Assembly (NCBI GenBank): GCA_035506275.1
Contig: DATJPT010000017.1
Span: 11,831-75,830, forward strand
DNA: 64,000 bases
Origin: Bacteroidota bacterium
GTDB lineage: Bacteria; Bacteroidota; Ignavibacteria; UBA10030; UBA8401
Reading direction: 5' to 3'
The notes beneath the pieces were generated by a model. That model did no database searches. It was not told where the DNA came from and saw only the letters and a program-made list of their open reading frames with translations. Below, piece after piece: positions 24,042 to 31,789 of the stretch; the stretch's first letter is position 1, and every line of letters begins with the position of its first letter. The position numbers were made by a program, and so were the translations under genes.

Positions 24042-25304
24042 TTACTTCACCAGCCACAGGCTGAGTTGGGGGATGTACGTGATGATCAGTAATCCCGCCA
24101 GGAGTACAAGAATGAACGGGAGCGTCGCGACGGTCACTTTGCCGATCGATTTCTTGAATCGAAAGCTCGACATGAACAGGTTCATCCCGACCGGAGGCAT
24201 CAGGTATGCGATCTCCAGGTTGGCAAGGAAGATGATGCCGAGATGGATCGGGTCGACGCCGTACTGCTTCGCGATCGGAACGATGAGAGGGACAACGACG
24301 ATCGCCGAAAAAATTTCCATCATCATGCCGATGACCAGGAGGAAAAGGTTCAGGATCATCAGGAAAACGATCTTGCTTTCGACCACTTGACGGATCAGCT
24401 CGAAGAGTCTTTGCGGTATTTGCTGATCGATCAAAAAGCTGGTGAGCCCCATCGCCATCGCGAGGATCATCAAGATCGCGCCGACAAGGACCATGCTCTC
24501 CTTCATCACCCGCGGTACGTCGGTCGTGATCTTCAGGTCCTTGTAGATGAACACTTCCACGATGAAGACGTAAAACGCCGTGACGGCGGCTGCTTCGGTC
24601 GCCGTGAAATACCCACCGTAGATCCCTCCGATGATGAAAAAGGGAAGCGGGATCTCCCAAATAACATTTTTCAGCGCAGCCCATAATTTTTTCGCGTCGA
24701 ACGGATGCCGCTCGATCTTTGACGCGATCCCCTGCCGGATGCTGTAAACGGCCAGGACGGTCACCAGCACAATTCCCGGCACAATGCCGGCCCGGAACAA
24801 CTGATCGATCGAAACCTCCGCGACGGTCCCGTATAAAATGATCGGAAGGCTCGGCGGGAAGAGCAGGCCGAGGCTGCCGGACGTTGTCACGAGGCCGAGG
24901 ACGAATTTTTCGCTGTATTTTTCGGCGATCAGGATCGGAAAGACGAGGCCGCCAAGCGCGACGATGGTGATCCCCGACCCGCCGGTGAACGCCGTGAAGA
25001 TCGCACAGCTCGCGAGGACAACGATCGCCAATCCTCCGGGCATCCAACCGATGAGCGCCTGTGCGAGCGCGACAATGCGCTGCGGCGCCTTGCTTTCAGC
25101 GAGAAAATATCCCGAAACAGTGAACAGCGGAATCGCAAGCAGGACCGGCTGGCTGGCAAGACGGTACATTTCAACGATGATCGCTGCCGTGTCGATCCCT
25201 TGCGAAGAAAACCCCAGGAGCGATATGGTCCCGATGATCGAAAAGAGCGGCGCTCCGAAAAGGACAAGGACGGCGAGTGCGAGAACAACATAGACGAGAG
25301 GCAT
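24042..25304 (-). CDS. dctM: TRAP transporter large permease subunit
   Basis: About 420 aa polytopic DctM-type membrane protein; start ATG overlaps the dctQ stop (TGATG). Confidence 0.85.
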   Translation of the reverse strand: MPLVYVVLALAVLVLFGAPLFSIIGTISLLGFSSQGIDTAAIIVEMYRLASQPVLLAIPLFTVSGYFLAESKAPQRIVALAQALIGWMPGGLAIVVLASCAIFTAFTGGSGITIVALGGLVFPILIAEKYSEKFVLGLVTTSGSLGLLFPPSLPIILYGTVAEVSIDQLFRAGIVPGIVLVTVLAVYSIRQGIASKIERHPFDAKKLWAALKNVIWEIPLPFFIIGGIYGGYFTATEAAAVTAFYVFIVEVFIYKDLKITTDVPRVMKESMVLVGAILMILAMAMGLTSFLIDQQIPQRLFELIRQVVESKIVFLMILNLFLLVIGMMMEIFSAIVVVPLIVPIAKQYGVDPIHLGIIFLANLEIAYLMPPVGMNLFMSSFRFKKSIGKVTVATLPFILVLLAGLLIITYIPQLSLWLVK

Positions 25305-25816
25305 CAGTGCTGCTCCTCCTGGAGATGCCAGTTCCCGTGAACGATCTCCGCGAGCCACGCCGCGGAGCGCACGATAAAGCGAAATGAAATGATGCCGTAT
25401 CCGGCAGGGATGATGATGATGAAGTACGTTATCGGGAGGTTGAGGATAAGCGTGTCCCCGGCCTGTCCTTCCATCTGGACGAACGCGATCGCCGCTTCCA
25501 TGAGCAGGAAGCAGATGCCCGCAGCGAAGAGGTTCGTTACGACGTAGATGATTTTTCTGAACCGCTCGGGGGCAAGCTTGTTGATGAATTCAATTTTCAG
25601 GTGGCGGCCTTCGCCGGTCGCGATCACCGCGCCGAGGAACCCCAGCCAGAGCACCAGGTGCCGGAGGAACACGTCCCCCCATTCGATGCTCGTATGGAAA
25701 AAATTCCTGAGCACGACCTGGCCGAACGCCATAAGGATCATGACGCTGAGAAAAAAAATGATCAGCCAGCCGGTGATGCGGGCAAGCCAGCGGTCGACGA
25801 ACAACAGCAGTTTCAT
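25304..25816 (-). CDS. dctQ: TRAP transporter small permease subunit
   Basis: 170 aa, 4 TM, operon position between the P and M subunits. Confidence 0.75.
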   Translation of the reverse strand: MKLLLFVDRWLARITGWLIIFFLSVMILMAFGQVVLRNFFHTSIEWGDVFLRHLVLWLGFLGAVIATGEGRHLKIEFINKLAPERFRKIIYVVTNLFAAGICFLLMEAAIAFVQMEGQAGDTLILNLPITYFIIIIPAGYGIISFRFIVRSAAWLAEIVHGNWHLQEEQH

Positions 25817-26805
25817 TTCTTCTCCTTCGCGCGGAAATCCATGACCGACTTTTCCACGCGGTTCAGCAGATCTTCCGAATAGAGCTTCCCGACCATCAGC
25901 CGGCGCGCGTTCTTTCCGATCTCCTCATAACGGCTGATCTCGCTCGGGTCCGGTTTTGTGAATATGATCTTGTTCTTTTTCAGCACGTCGAGCGATTTCA
26001 AATTGTCTGTGCGGCTCAACTCCGTCAGCTTTCGCATCAGCTGCTTCCCGTTCCGGAGCAGAATTTCCTGAAGGTCCGGCGGCATTTTGTCGAATTCTCT
26101 CTTCGCGATGACGACGGCGCCGGAAGCGTTCGTGAGCGGATAGTCGAGCATATATTTTGTTGCGGTGTACCATTGAAGCGATACGCCCGCAAGCGGCGAC
26201 GTATACATACCGTTGATCAGGCCGGTTTGGAGCGACGTCAGCACGTCGGTGATGGAGAGTTGAATCGGATTGATCCCGAAGGCTTTGAACGTCGCTTCCG
26301 CAACGGGGTCTCCTTCCCATTGCCACATTTTCACGTTGCGCATGTCCTCAACTTTCGTGACCGGGGTATTGGTGAAGACATACACAAACCCGACTTCGGC
26401 CCATCCAAGCAAGACATATCCGCCGTTTTCAAATTCCTTCCGGAGCTCGGCGTCATATTGATTAACGATGTAATCGACCTCGTCATGGTTCTTGAAAAGG
26501 AACGGAGCATCCAGAATTCGGGCCGATTTTGCGATCTCGCCGATGCCCACGCCGGTGATCCCCGCGCTTTGGAATTGTCCCAGACGGATCTTGCGAAGAA
26601 CGTCCTTTTCGTCGCCGGCAACTCCCCCGGGGTAGATCTTGAACCCAAGCCGGCCGTTGCTTTCTTTCCGGATGGCCTGGTCATATTCCTTCATGACGTT
26701 GATCCAGGTGCTCCCTTCGGGGGCGAGGGTCGCAAACTTGATGGTGAATTCCTGGGCAAAAGTCTGCGTTGCGAGAAAAAGAACCGCGGTGAAAAGATAT
26801 TTCAT
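25813..26805 (-). CDS. dctP: TRAP transporter substrate-binding protein (DctP/TatP-type)
   Basis: Signal peptide (MKYLFTAVLFLATQTFAQE) then DctP-family periplasmic binding protein; start set at ATG 26805 rather than the upstream extension. Confidence 0.8.
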   Translation of the reverse strand: MKYLFTAVLFLATQTFAQEFTIKFATLAPEGSTWINVMKEYDQAIRKESNGRLGFKIYPGGVAGDEKDVLRKIRLGQFQSAGITGVGIGEIAKSARILDAPFLFKNHDEVDYIVNQYDAELRKEFENGGYVLLGWAEVGFVYVFTNTPVTKVEDMRNVKMWQWEGDPVAEATFKAFGINPIQLSITDVLTSLQTGLINGMYTSPLAGVSLQWYTATKYMLDYPLTNASGAVVIAKREFDKMPPDLQEILLRNGKQLMRKLTELSRTDNLKSLDVLKKNKIIFTKPDPSEISRYEEIGKNARRLMVGKLYSEDLLNRVEKSVMDFRAKEKK

Positions 26806-26851
26806 GGAGAATGTTCCTGATAATTCTGATCGATGAGTGGGATATGCTGGC

Positions 26852-27730
26852 CTAGAAGAACAGGTCGCCTTCTTTAGCGAGCAATGCTTTCGCTTTTTGC
26901 TTGGCAACAGCGTTGACGAGACGCTGTTCCGGGAGGATGTCGATGGACGCATCTTCCACTGTCTTCAGCAAGGATTCAAAGAGCGCTTTATCCTGGATCT
27001 GGACCGTATAGCTCTGCGCCATATAAACGTAGGGAAGAAGAAATTTTCCTTCCCCGATCTGCAGACACTTGTCAAAATGAGCTTTTGCGCTGTCGGGCTT
27101 GCCGCCGAGATTCTTTGGTATCGTCGCCAGAATCGTTCCGAAATAGAGGTGAGCGCTGCCATAGTAGAAGCGTTCATCGTTTCGGAGGACAAATTCCATC
27201 AGCGAATTGACTTTTTGAAGTTCGGCCACGGCCGAAGGGTCTGCGATGCTGAGCTTGATCAGATTTCCCCAGGCATTTGCCGTCCAGAAAATCATCGGGA
27301 CATCGTCGTTCGAGAACGAACCGACCCCTGACTTGAATTCTTCCGGCGTGCCGTCGAACGCTGCGCTGAATTTTTTGTTCTTCTTCAGCACGGACAGTCC
27401 GTAGTCGCGTGCGCGGCTGTAGAGCGCTTTCGCCCGCACGGGGTCTGTGTCTTCCACAAAACCAAGAGCGTATCCGGTGAAGCCCTGCGTTAACAGCAAT
27501 GCAAGGTGGTCATCGTCGTTGTCTTTCGACCGATAGAGCGCTTCGAGGAGGGTGAGATTTGCAGGTATCGATTGCTCGGCGAGCGTGAGGTCGGATTCTT
27601 CAAAAATCGCGCTGAGGCCGTTGTCGACGATGCCCGTGGTGGAATTCACCGCGACCGTTTGAAGAAGACCGCACGACCAATTGGTAAAACCGAGGAGGAC
27701 GATAAACGCCGCTGCGAGTTTATTCATCAT
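26852..27730 (-). CDS. TPR-repeat lipoprotein of the TatT type (T-component of TPR-protein-associated TRAP transporters)
   Basis: Signal/lipobox (FTNWSCG), about 290 aa helical-repeat protein, directly upstream of and co-oriented with dctPQM; start uncertain (27730, 27727 or 27769). Confidence 0.45.
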   Translation of the reverse strand: MMNKLAAAFIVLLGFTNWSCGLLQTVAVNSTTGIVDNGLSAIFEESDLTLAEQSIPANLTLLEALYRSKDNDDDHLALLLTQGFTGYALGFVEDTDPVRAKALYSRARDYGLSVLKKNKKFSAAFDGTPEEFKSGVGSFSNDDVPMIFWTANAWGNLIKLSIADPSAVAELQKVNSLMEFVLRNDERFYYGSAHLYFGTILATIPKNLGGKPDSAKAHFDKCLQIGEGKFLLPYVYMAQSYTVQIQDKALFESLLKTVEDASIDILPEQRLVNAVAKQKAKALLAKEGDLFF

Positions 27731-27840
27731 TTCGACGTTGAATATAGAGAAAACGGACCACTTTTCCAAAACAATATTGCAAATCGACTCAAAGTGTTTT
27801 AATATAGTACCGGAATTCCCAGCGCAAAAAGGAAGTTTTA

Positions 27841-28512
27841 ATGAAAATATTGGTTGTCGAAGACGAAAAAAAAGTCGGCGCGTTCATAAAAAAGGGATTG
27901 GAAGAGGATCGTTACACCGTCGAAGTGGCCTTGGACGGCGACAAGGGAGGGGAACTCGCCGCGGAAGGATCGTTCGACCTGATCATTCTTGACATCCTGA
28001 TGCCCAAGAAAGACGGGTTAACGATGTTGAAAGAACTCCGGGCAAAACATGTATCGACGCCCGTGCTCATGATCACGGCAAAAGGCTCCGTCGAGGATAA
28101 AGTGAAAGGCCTCGATACGGGGGCGGACGATTATTTGGTGAAGCCGTTTGCCATCGCTGAGCTGTTGGCGCGCGTTCGGTCCCTCCTCCGGCGCGGCGGA
28201 CCGGAAAAATCGACGGCGCTCACCGTTGCTGACCTGACGCTCGACCTCGTTTCGCACAAGGCGACACGGGGGAAAAATACCATCGAGTTGACCGGAAAAG
28301 AATACACCCTCCTGGAATATTTCATGCGGAACACCAACAAAGTGCTGAGCCGTACGATCATCTCCGAGCACATTTGGAACTATAACTTCGATACCGGCAC
28401 GAACATCATCGACGTGTATATCAACCATTTGCGCAACAAGATCGACGGCGAATTTGAAAGAAAGCTGATCCACACCGTGCGCGGTGTCGGCTACATGATG
28501 AAAGCATCCTGA
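27841..28512 (+). CDS. OmpR-family response regulator (CusR/CopR-like)
   Basis: Receiver domain (KILVVEDE...DLIILDILMP...K) and winged-helix output (TIELTGKEYTLLEYFMRN...VRGVGY). Confidence 0.85.
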   Translation: MKILVVEDEKKVGAFIKKGLEEDRYTVEVALDGDKGGELAAEGSFDLIILDILMPKKDGLTMLKELRAKHVSTPVLMITAKGSVEDKVKGLDTGADDYLVKPFAIAELLARVRSLLRRGGPEKSTALTVADLTLDLVSHKATRGKNTIELTGKEYTLLEYFMRNTNKVLSRTIISEHIWNYNFDTGTNIIDVYINHLRNKIDGEFERKLIHTVRGVGYMMKAS

Positions 28513-28513
28513 A

Positions 28514-29998
28514 ATGAAATACCTTCATTCGATACGGCTGAAACTGACGGCATGGTATACGCTGATCCTCGGCGTCACGCTGTTCGGGTTCGGCGCTACG
28601 GCGTATCTCTTTACGCAAGAGAACCTCCTTGCCAGCCTTGACTATTCGCTCCGCAACGAGGTCGTCTGGCTGAAGAACTTCATTGAACCACAGGCGCGCA
28701 AAGTGAAGCTCAAACAGCAGCGGTCAAAGCCGTCGGCGCAGCCGAAAAAGCAGGAGAAAAAGGTCAAACGTTCGCACGAAGTGGAAGTGACCGAGGCCGA
28801 TTCCGTCGAGTTCGACCAGATCTGGAACCAGATCTACGAGCACACGCTGCTGAGCCCCAAGAAGCAGATCATTCAGATCCGCGACCGCAACGGGGACATC
28901 CTCTACAAATCATACAGCCTGGGAAAAGAGGATATTATCTTCGAGGACATCCCGTACAACACGACGAAGCTGGTGACGATCTACGATGCACAGGGGCAGC
29001 CCTTGCGTCTTGCCGTCACTCAGAACGCCTACGTGAAGATCTTCGTCGCCTATCCCGAGGCGGAGATCAGCGAAGTGCTGGGAAACCTCTTTTCGATTTT
29101 TGTCATCCTCGTGCCGGTCGCGCTGATCCTCTCGGTGCTAGGAGGATGGTTCCTCGCGAACAAATCGCTGAAGCCGGTCGACAAGATCACGAGAACGGCG
29201 CGCGACATCACAGCGCAGAATCTGGACCAGCGCATTCTTTCGGTGGACGTGGACGACGAGATCGGAAGGCTGATCTCCACGTTCAACGACATGATCGGGC
29301 GTCTGCAAAGTTCGTTCGACCAGACAAAGCAATTTTCCATCGATGCGTCGCATGAGCTTCGCACACCGCTCACGATCATGCGGGGCGAACTTGAGCTCGC
29401 CCTCCGTTCGAAACAGACGAACGAAGGGTACCGGCGCATTCTCTCCAGCACGCTCGACGAGATCCTCCGCATGTCTTCCATCATCGAAAATCTCCTGATG
29501 CTTGCCAAGGGGGACATCGGAAAATCGGCATTCACGTTCGAAAAAGTAGCGCTCGCGCCGATCATCCGGGAATTGCACGAGGACAGCGAAATGCTTGCCG
29601 AGAAAAAGCACATCCGCGTTACCCTCGAACAGGTCGACAATCTGACTGTGTCCGGCGACACAGTACGGCTTCGCCAGCTGGTGTTGAATCTGCTCGACAA
29701 CGCCATCAAATACACCCCCAAAAAAGGGACGATCGAATTATCGCTGGTCCGGGAGAACGGTTCCGCCAAGATAATTGTTAAAGATAACGGCATCGGCATA
29801 CCCGCCGACGAGCAATCGAAGATTTTCGACAGGTTTTACAGGGTCGATAAGGGACGTTCCCGCGACATGGGGGGGACCGGATTGGGGCTCTCGATCGCCC
29901 GGTGGATTACCGAGATTCATGGGGGAACAATATACGTCCAAAGTGAGGTCAATAAGGGGAGCGAATTCACCGTGCTCCTCCCGCTCTTGCGCAACTGA
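28514..29998 (+). CDS. sensor histidine kinase (2 TM, HAMP, HisKA, HATPase_c; CusS-like)
   Basis: ASHELRTPLT H-box, N/G1/G2 boxes (DNGIGIP..., GGTGLGLSIARWITEIHGG), two TM segments; start 2 nt after the regulator stop. Confidence 0.85.
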   Translation: MKYLHSIRLKLTAWYTLILGVTLFGFGATAYLFTQENLLASLDYSLRNEVVWLKNFIEPQARKVKLKQQRSKPSAQPKKQEKKVKRSHEVEVTEADSVEFDQIWNQIYEHTLLSPKKQIIQIRDRNGDILYKSYSLGKEDIIFEDIPYNTTKLVTIYDAQGQPLRLAVTQNAYVKIFVAYPEAEISEVLGNLFSIFVILVPVALILSVLGGWFLANKSLKPVDKITRTARDITAQNLDQRILSVDVDDEIGRLISTFNDMIGRLQSSFDQTKQFSIDASHELRTPLTIMRGELELALRSKQTNEGYRRILSSTLDEILRMSSIIENLLMLAKGDIGKSAFTFEKVALAPIIRELHEDSEMLAEKKHIRVTLEQVDNLTVSGDTVRLRQLVLNLLDNAIKYTPKKGTIELSLVRENGSAKIIVKDNGIGIPADEQSKIFDRFYRVDKGRSRDMGGTGLGLSIARWITEIHGGTIYVQSEVNKGSEFTVLLPLLRN

Positions 29999-30116
29999 CC
30001 GCTTTTCACTTGACAATGAAATGACAATATCCTAAGTTGAGCCACAGAGAAATCAAGCCTAAGTACATTAACCCACATCAATCTAATCTACATTTTTTGA
30101 AAGGAGCGGTTGTTGA

Positions 30117-30398
30117 ATGAAACGTCTCTGTAGTATGTTGCTGGCAGTAGTGTTTGCTTTCTCGCTGTCCTTTGCACAGGATGCGATGAAGCCGCAGGAT
30201 AATTCGCAGACTCCGCCTGCAAAAAGTACCATGATGAAGAAGGATAAGAAAAAGATGGCCAAGGACAAGAAGAAGATGGCGAAAGACAAGAAGAAGATGG
30301 CCAAGGACAAGAAGAAAATGTCAAAAGACAAGAAGAAGATGGCCAAGGACAAGAAGAAGATGAAGAGCAATATGATGAAAGCAGATTCCACGAAGTAA
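30117..30398 (+). CDS. small secreted lysine-rich heptad-repeat protein (6-7 copies of KDKKKMA)
   Basis: Signal peptide MKRLCSMLLAVVFAFSLSFAQDA; mature part MKKDKKKMAKDKKKMAKDKKKMAKDKKKMSKDKKKMAKDKKKMKSNMMK; repeats differ at synonymous positions (gcc/gcg, aag/aaa), which argues for protein-level selection. Confidence 0.5.
   Translation: MKRLCSMLLAVVFAFSLSFAQDAMKPQDNSQTPPAKSTMMKKDKKKMAKDKKKMAKDKKKMAKDKKKMSKDKKKMAKDKKKMKSNMMKADSTK
30234..30380 (+). repeat. 7 tandem copies of a 21 bp unit (atggccaaggacaagaagaag and variants), in-frame coding repeat
   Basis: Direct inspection of 30234-30380. Confidence 0.85.
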
Positions 30399-30423
30399 TT
30401 CTTTGGATCTTTGCTGAGAATAT

Positions 30424-30458
30424 AAAACCCCGTTTTTTTATCGAAGCGGGGTTTTTTA
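30424..30458 (+). terminator. rho-independent terminator
   Basis: aaaaccccg ... cggggtttttta hairpin plus T-run directly after the repeat-protein gene. Confidence 0.55.
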
Positions 30459-30523
30459 TTAACATTCGTCCTTCATGCGTTGTCGAACGAGTTCTCTCTA
30501 CGTTCCAATCACCGTCAACTCCC

Positions 30524-31789
30524 ATGGCATTCATTCAGCGCCTTCAGAGCTTGAGGCTTCCGCGATTCCTCGTGCGGCTTCTTCGCTTTCAAATGGCTCC
30601 TCCCGCAGGCGTGTACAACGTCCATGTCATCTCGCTGGAAGAAGAACTGGAATTTCCTGACCTCCTTCCGAAAGAACTCCGCTACGCGCTGCAAAAAGAT
30701 CCCTCGCTGAAAAACCGGATCGTGAAAGTATTCAAAAGCGGGAAAGCGATCGGCATCCGCACTGTAGAAAAGACACCCGAACGGGTGTTGACCGCCATCA
30801 ACAACATCGCGGTCATCAGCCAGCACCGGACGATCATCACCTGGCTGCCTCGATTGCTGTTGACCCAAACGCGGCCGTCGTTTCTTCCTGCCGACCACGA
30901 AGCGGCCGCAAGAAACGGCGTCGACCTCGACGAAGAGATCGCCGTCATCCTTTCGCACCGGCTCGACTTCAAAAAATTTGTTCTGGTGGATGAGGGGAAT
31001 CTGGGCGCGACATCGATCGACCGGAGGATTGTCGACGAATTGAACGAAGCGATCTCCCCCATCATCATCCGGCACGTCACCAACCGAATGACCTTCGACA
31101 ACGCCGACACAAGGACGGCGACGGGGCAGGCGATCATCAAGGCGCTGTTGTTCATTGGACCGGTCGCCCAGGTTTTCGAAATGTACACTCGCGGCATCGG
31201 CAAGCTCGTCGCGGCGTCGACCGACGACGTGCTTGCCGAAACCGCAGAGCTGTTCGCCTTGCGGGGGTCGGGGTTCACCTGGAAGCAGCTGATCGTCCGT
31301 TCACGCCTCCTCATTCCGGTCTTCCTGCTCGCCACATACGGGGCGTTTGAGGTCGACCATTTGCTTGACCTCGGAAACCTTGCACTGGCGGGGTTTCTCT
31401 TCGGCGTCACCTCGGTCGCGTTATCGCTCACCACTGCGCTTCAGAGCATTCGCATGTACAAAGAATGCGTTGACGACCTCGTGAACGAAAAGAAGCTCCC
31501 GCCGCAGAAGCAACGTTCCCGCTGGGTTCTCGCCGTGATACAGGACTTCACGAACCCTGCACGACTCGGGCTTTTCATCGGCGGAATGGTCTCGCCGGTC
31601 GCTTCGATGATCATCTTCGTGTGGTTCCCGCAATTCGTGCACAACGGGTGGGTTCTCGCCGTGCTCGGCACGGCGGAAACCGTGACCGCCGGAACCGTCG
31701 TCGTTCTCGCGCGGAGGTTGAACCTGCTGAAATTCCAGCTCGACCTGAATCGACTGCTGAGGAAACAACACCGCCTGCGTCGGAGTTGA
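30524..31789 (+). CDS. hypothetical protein, soluble N-terminal domain plus C-terminal hydrophobic helices; no recognisable family
   Basis: Balanced amino-acid composition on + strand, whereas the antisense ORF is S/R/T-rich; 3-4 predicted TM helices in the last 150 aa. Confidence 0.4.
   Translation: MAFIQRLQSLRLPRFLVRLLRFQMAPPAGVYNVHVISLEEELEFPDLLPKELRYALQKDPSLKNRIVKVFKSGKAIGIRTVEKTPERVLTAINNIAVISQHRTIITWLPRLLLTQTRPSFLPADHEAAARNGVDLDEEIAVILSHRLDFKKFVLVDEGNLGATSIDRRIVDELNEAISPIIIRHVTNRMTFDNADTRTATGQAIIKALLFIGPVAQVFEMYTRGIGKLVAASTDDVLAETAELFALRGSGFTWKQLIVRSRLLIPVFLLATYGAFEVDHLLDLGNLALAGFLFGVTSVALSLTTALQSIRMYKECVDDLVNEKKLPPQKQRSRWVLAVIQDFTNPARLGLFIGGMVSPVASMIIFVWFPQFVHNGWVLAVLGTAETVTAGTVVVLARRLNLLKFQLDLNRLLRKQHRLRRS

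Follow-up and report, generated by a model that had tools for sequence, protein, structure and literature searches.

The subject of this analysis is a mini-gene in a 64,000-nucleotide stretch of DNA from a Bacteroidota bacterium (assembly GCA_035506275.1, contig DATJPT010000017.1, positions 11,831 to 75,830), which is considered at its full length and is called the window below. The gene occupies positions 30117-30398 of the forward strand, TAA stop included, directly downstream of a two-component system that resembles CusRS, and it encodes a protein of 93 residues (MKRLCSMLLAVVFAFSLSFAQDAMKPQDNSQTPPAKSTMMKKDKKKMAKDKKKMAKDKKKMAKDKKKMSKDKKKMAKDKKKMKSNMMKADSTK) made largely of lysine-rich heptads behind a predicted signal peptide. 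Comparison with its orthologs indicates that selection has kept the composition of this mini-protein, that is its charge density, the exclusive use of Lys to provide it and the enrichment in Met, and has not kept the heptad. The reading that we favour, with somewhat less than even confidence, is that the mini-protein is a compositional periplasmic polycation which would work like the Asr protein of Enterobacteria, Met playing a secondary and possibly MrpX-like part. A polycationic peptide was only the fallback in the preliminary description of this DNA, which had preferred Cu(I)/Ag(I) binding, and the ortholog comparison favours that fallback. What is new is the lineage-specific family; its kind, exported repetitive stress mini-proteins, is known and does not form a new category.

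Orthologs were sought by scanning species-representative genomes with the sensor kinase encoded upstream, which gave 13 close loci with kinases 86-93% identical, all labelled Bacteroidota. In 12 of these 13, an open reading frame of 75-98 residues lies about 125 nucleotides past the kinase stop codon. At one more locus, L046, where the kinase is 73% identical, the upstream genes are not the same and the TRAP/TatT operon is absent; the regulator, the kinase and a reading frame of 98 residues are nonetheless kept. The mini-gene is found, complete with signal peptide, Shine-Dalgarno site, promoter and terminator, in 13 species-level genomes, which belong to a single uncultured Bacteroidota clade. 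This recurrence is far beyond chance, and on such comparative evidence the mini-gene is a genuine gene. The exact mini-protein is also found on 7 metagenome contigs with identical synteny. In the nearest outgroup (L031; kinase 64% identical, with the same sensor features) there is no mini-gene at this position. Throughout, family statistics refer to 19 members, repeat period and tabulated composition to 16 genome-derived orthologs, and the leader alignment to 14 loci.

A profile search with HMMER, run exhaustively over 1.84 billion cluster representatives, returned 16 matches below 1e-3, among which only P0007, P0016 and a fragment are true relatives, the rest being other charged heptad proteins; a second profile search added P0151 and two marginal matches. 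No true relatives outside the one Bacteroidota clade were found in the exhaustive search. In Pfam and NCBIfam scans of the mini-protein and the 19 members no model reached its cut-off, in keeping with the preliminary description, to which no known family had come to mind; matches to CzcI, Sec_Non_Glob, DUF3450, FliH and other models were rejected as sub-threshold and composition-driven. One automated Joint Genome Institute label, 'pentapeptide MXKDX repeat protein', is attached to P0007, and the family is otherwise unannotated. A literature search for lysine-rich and methionine-rich periplasmic proteins found nothing, and a profile search of solved structures found no relative.

In the window, the repeat is a single array of a 21-bp tandem unit at 30240-30362 (+), which Tandem Repeats Finder resolves into 5.9 copies (86% matches, score 190) encoding KDKKKM[A/S] heptads and which a codon-level reading divides into six units KDKKKM[A/S/K]. 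A heptad-repetitive sequence built on a 21-bp tandem repeat, as first described, is thus borne out for this genome. The units differ from one another by one Ala-to-Ser change, by the codon that ends the last unit and otherwise by synonymous substitutions (GAT/GAC, AAA/AAG, GCC/GCG), and because they vary almost solely at synonymous positions the translated repeat appears to be under purifying selection. Among the orthologs the unit itself turns over. MAKDKKK is found in the window, L023 and L010, and MKKDKKK in L025, L026 and L028; L019, L022, L030, L012 and L015 carry a 14-residue unit of the type xAKAKKKVAKDK; L020, L021 and L024 carry six-residue units (KKATKA or KKTTKT) that are nearly free of Asp; the unit is KKSKMAKK in L027 and of a four-residue KKxM type in L029, and L046 has a Glu-based, non-repetitive version. 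Autocorrelation of Lys is highest at lag 7 in 11 of the 16 orthologs, at lag 6 in four and at lag 4 in one. The Met of the heptad is swapped for V, A, T or L, L022 being down to 4 Met, the Met-to-Met spacing is irregular in orthologs other than the window's, and Pro and Thr invade the repeats. Family members are 70-98 residues long and vary by whole repeat blocks, P0006 differing from the 91-residue P0005 by one clean gap of 21 residues, which agrees with the unstable copy number suggested earlier. In neither number nor sequence is the repeat conserved among homologs, a finding that the preliminary description had itself named as counting against its copper proposal.

Composition, by comparison with the repeat unit, has been kept. 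In the mature chains of the 19 members, Lys makes up 35-49%, Asp plus Glu 6-20% and Met 6-20%, a 3- to 8-fold enrichment in Met, and L046 has 14% Met; Arg, Cys and aromatic residues are absent from all 19, and His occurs once (zero in 18 of 19). The net charge per residue lies between +0.26 and +0.30 in 18 of the 19 members and is 0.24 in L046, and the net charge of the 16 genome-derived orthologs is +16 to +22. The Lys fraction follows the acidic fraction, from 36% Lys at 6% acidic residues to 49% Lys at 20% (r = 0.78 overall; r = 0.76 among nine representatives of the repeat architectures). The spread of net charge is half that expected under independence (74 of 10000 permutations), a figure that overstates the significance because Asp-containing units hold more Lys and the sequences share phylogeny. 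A single mutational step leads from Lys codons to those of Arg, Asn, Gln and Glu. Of these four residues, Arg does not occur in the repeats and the other three are infrequent, while Met and Thr are common, which suggests that the spacer residues are selected and do not result from drift. The family is a natural experiment: its repeat unit changed several times over, and Met enrichment and a charge density provided by Lys alone persisted. Composition-level selection is separable here from sequence-level selection, and the 73-residue mature peptide can be synthesised.

The length of the mature chain follows from the signal peptide, which covers residues 1-20 (30117-30176, +) with predicted cleavage at SFA↓QDA, a call based on conservation and on the Q-rule. 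In Bacteroidetes, signal-peptide cleavage according to this rule exposes a Gln that is then cyclised to pyroglutamate (PMC5837995, PMC10653852). M1, K2, F13, A14, F15 and Q21 are invariant in 19 of 19 members, and an Ala-Gln cleavage pattern also occurs in two other proteins of the window, DctP (TFA↓QEF) and a 1047-residue protein (STA↓QEA). Because cleavage before the invariant Gln21 fits the Q-rule, the mature chain is taken as 73 residues, and its N-terminal Gln is probably cyclised. Of the earlier view of a secreted protein with a 70-residue mature part, the signal peptide and the predicted export stand, while the length is corrected. The mature chain is 41% Lys and 15% Met, carries a net charge of +21 and lacks Arg, His, Cys and aromatic residues. 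Given that it has no type IX secretion C-terminal domain, the periplasm is the location expected by default. A lipoprotein was considered and rejected, as Cys5 is too near the N-terminus and is missing in L025-L029.

An AlphaFold2 model built with seven sequences has a single long helix over residues 36-91 at a predicted local distance difference test (pLDDT) score of 70-86, with residues 24-35 disordered and a predicted template modelling score of 0.30; a signal-peptide helix spans residues 2-23, and pLDDT falls below 50 for residues 27-33. By this model, whose confidence is moderate or low, the mature chain is disordered or helix-prone and not globular. The Met residues of the window's ortholog would wind slowly along the modelled helix as a stripe. 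Because six-residue, Thr-rich and Pro-containing orthologs exist, selection is unlikely to have acted on a defined helical face. A membrane-active amphipathic helix of the antimicrobial type was rejected for its very low hydrophobicity (hydrophobic moment 0.29-0.57 at a mean hydrophobicity of -0.5 to -0.9).

Asr is controlled by two-component systems. As summarised in PMC10746267, which cites Ren et al. 2022, it is a periplasmic, repetitive, basic and disordered chaperone whose action is governed by net charge. The mini-protein is like Asr in being exported, about 70-80 residues long when mature, repetitive, Lys-rich, Arg-poor and disordered: a signal peptide, a high Lys content and a chain with no globular fold predicted are all found here. 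Unlike Asr, which is composed of Lys, His, Ala, Gln and Pro with no Met, the family belongs to another phylum and does without His, so that its charge would not be pH-tunable near neutrality. An Asr-like charge action is favoured because charge density is the strongest conserved signal and because a dependence on net charge has been published for Asr. Sec export and cleavage at SFA↓QDA would release the 73-residue polycation, whose charge may drive binding to anionic envelope components or to client proteins under envelope stress; the Met thioethers would be secondary, possibly as a sacrificial sink like that of MrpX or as flexible contact residues. We infer the periplasmic location, the inducing stress and the actual activity from these comparisons. 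Small exported low-complexity proteins are usually dismissed as annotation noise, and Asr and MrpX show that such proteins can rank with the most strongly induced envelope-stress effectors.

Several observations weigh against an Asr-like action. None of the 19 members reaches the cut-off of the Asr model NF033636 (50 bits); four match it weakly (best E = 4.3e-5), and the window protein does not match it. To our knowledge, neither Asr nor histone-like tails contain Met. A pure polycation would not need Met, yet it is enriched in every member and M40 is invariant, and the Met residues probably matter more than the word secondary allows. The mature N-terminus is conserved as well, in a segment predicted to be disordered (QDAMKPQD..PPAK..MMK; 30177-30239, +; from conservation and AlphaFold2) where Q21, P26, Q27, P34 and M40 are invariant in the 19 members; with L046 added, the N-terminal Q, Q, P, K and M remain invariant. 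This motif hints at a specific partner over generic electrostatics, and charge action of the Asr kind explains neither it nor the Met residues. Furthermore, the covariation of Lys with acidic residues is partly intrinsic to the units, and the permutation result is suggestive.

Two genes precede the mini-gene, one for an OmpR-family response regulator (27841-28512, +; Response_reg and Trans_reg_C domains) and one for a sensor histidine kinase (28514-29998, +; HAMP, HisKA and HATPase_c), and we infer their control of the mini-gene, like any functional link with it, from adjacency alone. The best NCBIfam models for both are heavy-metal subfamilies whose curated thresholds are narrowly missed (regulator, TIGR01387, 278.7 bits against 279.2; kinase, TIGR01386, 273.4 bits against 292.55), and the equivalog cut-offs are missed by a wide margin (CusR model, 260 against 420; HprR, 227 against 353; CusS, 190 against 423). 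CusRS-like is a fair label for the pair, and the placement of the mini-gene downstream of such a system had been described correctly, the pair being Cus/Cop/Hpr-like and just under both cut-offs. The periplasmic part of the kinase (residues 34-190; window 28613-29083) contains 0 Met, 0 Cys and 2 His. Matches of the kinase in the PDB are confined to its cytoplasmic core, from residue ~175 onward, and no CusS sensor-domain entry was matched. The mini-gene would be a first candidate output gene for this abundant, uncharacterised CusRS-like system of uncultured soil, sediment and subsurface Bacteroidota.

A sacrificial antioxidant similar to MrpX is a possible but doubtful alternative. Exposed Met would be oxidised by hypochlorite or other periplasmic oxidants, sparing essential proteins, and would be re-reduced by methionine sulfoxide reductase, and the adjacent kinase and regulator would act like HprSR or OrhKR, oxidant-responsive members of the CusRS clade. 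MrpX is an exported hypochlorite scavenger that contains 20% Met and 44% charged residues (PMC4436054). Its homologs adjoin msrPQ in Brucella (PMC8315932), and in uropathogenic Escherichia coli (UPEC) a Met-rich peptide gene is part of an msrPQ-like operon under the control of the two-component system OrhKR (PMC8550376). Known MXKDX proteins are controlled either by a two-component system (OrhKR) or by an extracytoplasmic function (ECF) sigma factor (PMC8315932, PMC4436054, PMC8550376). Like these proteins (MrpX of Azospira suillum, BcrX (B0021) of Brucella and C3568 of UPEC), the mini-protein is small, apparently Sec-exported and built of tandem repeats of Met and charged residues. Met is enriched in all 19 members, with one Met invariant, at 6-20% in the family and 15% here against 20% in MrpX, and the regulator scores 227 bits on the HprR model. 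The pentapeptide M-x-K-[DE]-x of the model TIGR02953 (MXKDX) is found in MAKDK, MKKDK and MKKEK, MAKDK being such an M-x-K-D-x unit in the window protein, and 6 of the 19 members match that model weakly, the best being P0007 (26 bits, E = 6.4e-6).

These resemblances stop short in several respects. The best family member is under the 41-bit cut-off of TIGR02953, and the window protein has no match to it at E <= 10; its six MAKDK are always inside a seven-residue unit with an extra KK, and orthologs have units of six and four residues, some units lacking Asp or Met. With two extra Lys per unit (MAKDK+KK), a net charge of +21, replaceable Met and no msrPQ neighbour, the mini-protein differs from MXKDX proteins, and the antioxidant proposal leaves its extreme positive charge unexplained. 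Met falls to 4-5 in several orthologs, where A, V or T stands instead, and the sensor domain of the kinase has no Met or Cys with which to sense oxidants. No linkage to msrPQ/yedYZ was seen: a tblastn search with MsrP and MsrQ found no match in the 64 kb, and the corresponding Pfam families are absent from the +/-10 kb around the mini-gene. At another locus (L048, 1613-1981 and 2030-3134), the gene of a Lys-rich secreted protein, P0152, which is a marginal relative (E = 1.2e-3), adjoins in convergent orientation a signal-peptide-bearing MsrA/MsrB gene, as the antioxidant proposal would have it; both genes look frameshifted in the assembly.

Other Met-rich peptides of Bacteroidota, P0009-P0015 (KMAKDKMKM...), share with the mini-protein the phylum, export and richness in Lys and Met (P0011, 33% Lys, 21% Met, net +12). 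They differ in lying beside genes for ECF sigma factors, anti-sigma factors, redoxin and MsrPQ, with E = 0.17-7 to the window protein. Homology to them was rejected, since the hhalign profile comparison aligned signal peptides only, which also counts against the antioxidant proposal; this was the only profile-profile comparison, made with those peptides and not with the TIGR02953 model. In a soil Bacteroidota contig (L016, 4980-6909 and 2389-3862), an ECF sigma factor, a 92-residue putative anti-sigma factor, an 82-residue Met-rich peptide (21% Met) and a redoxin are encoded together, with MsrP and MsrQ genes immediately upstream of that cluster; the whole arrangement looks like a Bacteroidota counterpart of the proteobacterial SigF-NrsF/MrpX/YedYZ system.

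The preliminary description had proposed a periplasmic Cu(I)/Ag(I)-binding peptide with Met on one face of a helix and induction of the CusRS/CopRS type, which would be analogous to PcoE, SilE or CusF and which we now regard as improbable. The gene pcoE is placed after pcoRS with its own promoter, and PcoE and SilE are disordered and turn helical upon metal binding. The mini-protein is like PcoE, SilE and CusF (with PcoRS, SilRS and CusRS) in being Met-rich, presumably periplasmic and encoded beside a CusRS-family two-component system, and its position after the kinase gene, with a promoter of its own, recalls pcoRS-pcoE. The highest scores of regulator and kinase are on heavy-metal models, with the cut-offs just missed, M-x-M (EMKM) towards the N-terminal end and MM at the C-terminal end are kept in many orthologs, and AlphaFold2 does place the Met of the window's ortholog in a stripe, if a slowly winding one. 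The conserved Met stripe of the original proposal is nevertheless not supported by the orthologs, which differ in period (7, 6 or 4) and have V, A, T or L in the place of the heptad Met. PcoE and SilE carry His/Met motifs and are not polycationic; the mature chain in the window has no His or Cys, no HxxM or MxxH motifs are present, and cation binding is disfavoured by a net charge near +21. On a single helix, two Met spaced as i and i+7 would lie ~10 Angstrom from each other, too far to chelate one ion. Weak matches to the CzcI model NF045614 (15 of 19 members, best E = 7e-4) would be in its favour, but they reach only 17-20 bits against a cut-off of 100, in an alignment of residues 1-69 that starts with the signal peptide and mostly covers it. 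No Pfam match to any copper chaperone family was obtained at E <= 1, and none to CusF, CopC, CopK or SilE/PcoE models. The sensor domain, without Met or Cys, has no detectable similarity to that of CusS, and no metal genes, including those for Cu/Ag efflux (CopA, CusCBA) or a multicopper oxidase, lie within +/-10 kb of the mini-gene; the 64 kb as a whole is likewise free of copper or silver genes. A Met-rich protein next to a CusRS-like system need not mean copper biology.

The mini-gene has its own candidate promoter at 30010-30038 (+), in which TTGACA (30010-30015) and TAAGTT (30033-30038) are separated by a 17-nucleotide spacer. TTGAC-N17-19-TAAGTT has a single match in the 64 kb by pattern search, with 0.03 expected, and CTTGAC..TG.AA...CAA...C.TA.GTT is invariant or nearly so in the 14 orthologous loci, the remaining leader drifting; L046 retains the promoter as TTGACT-N17-TAAGTT. 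Since the response regulator's own promoter reads TTGCAA-N17-TAATAT, the lineage appears to employ sigma-70-type hexamers. The ribosome-binding site GAAAGGAGCG (30099-30108, +) has its AGGAG core at 30102-30106, 10 nucleotides from the ATG, and is unchanged in 14 of 14 aligned loci. An intrinsic terminator predicted by folding (30424-30459, +) consists of a stem at 30427-30436/30443-30452 and a T run. Its hairpin (30427-30452) folds at -14.3 kcal/mol (z = -3.3), those of three orthologs at -17.7 to -21.8, and in orthologs the inner stems and loops diverge in sequence with pairing retained, so the terminator noted at the outset is confirmed. A promoter/terminator scan tool listed neither the mini-gene promoter, whose -10 hexamer TAAGTT matches 3 of 6 bases, nor the terminator; both were established by pattern search, alignment and folding. 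Judged from its own conserved promoter, Shine-Dalgarno site and terminator, the mini-gene is probably an independent and well expressed transcription unit. Read-through from the kinase gene may also occur, as no terminator separates the two genes. No known RNA family was detected when the window was scanned with Rfam.

A direct repeat TGACAAT-N4-TGACAAT (spacer GAAA; 30011-30028, +) overlaps the -35 hexamer and has one exact match in the window, which makes it a candidate regulator site; its half-site resembles ATGACAA, half of the E. coli CusR box. The second TGACAAT is not kept in orthologs, where CAA alone remains, and the exact repeat is specific to the window. TTTTCMM-N3-ACAAT was tried as a shared regulator box and rejected, as it does not recur at the regulator's own promoter and is not found above chance elsewhere. 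No box common to the two promoters, and no convincing regulator box, was found.

The mini-protein could also be a periplasmic accessory or feedback ligand of the adjacent kinase, comparable to CpxP, MgrB or SafA, docking on an acidic patch of the sensor and tuning its signalling, although we give this only a slim chance. It is linked to this kinase in 13 species-level genomes, including L046 with its changed other flank, and an invariant linear N-terminal motif is unusual for a purely compositional protein. The periplasmic domain of the kinase is highly conserved and carries the acidic stretch HEVEVTEADSVEFDQ, immediately preceded by a Lys-rich insert, ARKVKLKQQRSKPSAQPKKQEKKVKRS; apart from that insert, the window and L046 have nearly identical versions of the domain. 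A near-consensus promoter and a strong Shine-Dalgarno site, however, suggest abundance, which is typical of an effector over a stoichiometric regulator, and the outgroup L031 has the same sensor features and no mini-gene at this position. A broader proposal, which is unlikely as well, would make the peptide a dedicated periplasmic output or co-sensor of a CusS/HprS-family kinase stripped of its metal and oxidant ligands, the N-terminal motif docking on the kinase sensor or on a reductase and the repeat serving as a fixed charge dose. If true, this would define a new class of charge-tuned Lys/Met polyelectrolyte (~+0.29 per residue) and a type of two-component accessory or effector not described in Bacteroidota. 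The practical impact is modest in any case, given how narrow the lineage is and that there are precedents for the likely functions.

That the sequence has no function as protein is extremely improbable. It might be a Lys-codon leader or attenuator for the 421-residue gene downstream, or a purine-rich DNA repeat open by chance: with 31 Lys codons and a terminator hairpin 26 nucleotides later it is superficially attenuator-like, and antisense frames are open too. Conservation at the protein level led us to reject both, since the signal peptide and mature N-terminus are conserved in 19 members and the changes between repeat units are almost all synonymous. Its 93 codons are far above known leader peptides, the spacer to the 421-residue gene varies from 125 to 260 nucleotides, and that gene occurs elsewhere with no such leader. 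A-runs do not exceed 7 nucleotides in the mini-gene or its orthologs, although each has 25-34 Lys codons. AAG makes up 77% of Lys codons in the window's mini-gene against 53% in eight neighbouring genes, a share that is uneven among orthologs (33-89%). The short A-runs and the use of AAG are consistent with avoidance of slippery poly(A) tracts. Two antisense open reading frames, 30083-30391 (-) and 30088-30534 (-), of 102 and 148 residues, overlap the mini-gene, and every ortholog has stop-free antisense stretches of 56-130 residues in at least two frames. They were rejected as genes, because an AAG-rich sense strand yields a stop-free, CTT-rich complement.

Within +/-10 kb of the mini-gene, the window encodes a TRAP transporter and TatT, an amino-acid permease, a large peptidase/PD40/Omp85 protein, RNase R and TamB, among others. 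The TatT-DctP-DctQ-DctM TRAP operon (24042-27727, -) is divergent from the regulator across an intergenic region of 113 nucleotides (27728-27840), and it may be what the two-component system really controls, or a further target of it; this linkage is lost in L046. Just downstream of the mini-gene, a conserved hypothetical gene (30524-31789, +) encodes the 421-residue protein, which has no Pfam or NCBIfam match and about 500 homologs, still ~50% identical in genomes labelled Patescibacteria and Aenigmarchaeota. A gene of this family at L044 lies beside a Peptidase_C14 gene, in a neighbourhood that has neither the two-component system nor the mini-gene. A functional link between the mini-gene and the 421-residue gene was rejected, as the latter family is widespread without either; the protein appears to be an unrelated neighbour from a widespread uncharacterised family.

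In a Thermodesulfobacteriota locus (L032, 4326-8010), a gene for a DegP/HtrA-type protease comes after a related two-component system, whose regulator is 59% and whose kinase is 40% identical. This arrangement is a hint that envelope stress may be what this branch of the 'heavy-metal' subfamily reports. Small signal-peptide-bearing proteins with other charged heptads (KDKKxxx, KEKKEVx, RDKRELA) were seen in unrelated organisms (P0008/L042, P0018, P0019, P0023, P0027 and P0030), and they suggest that a broader, unclassified set of exported charged-heptad mini-proteins exists.

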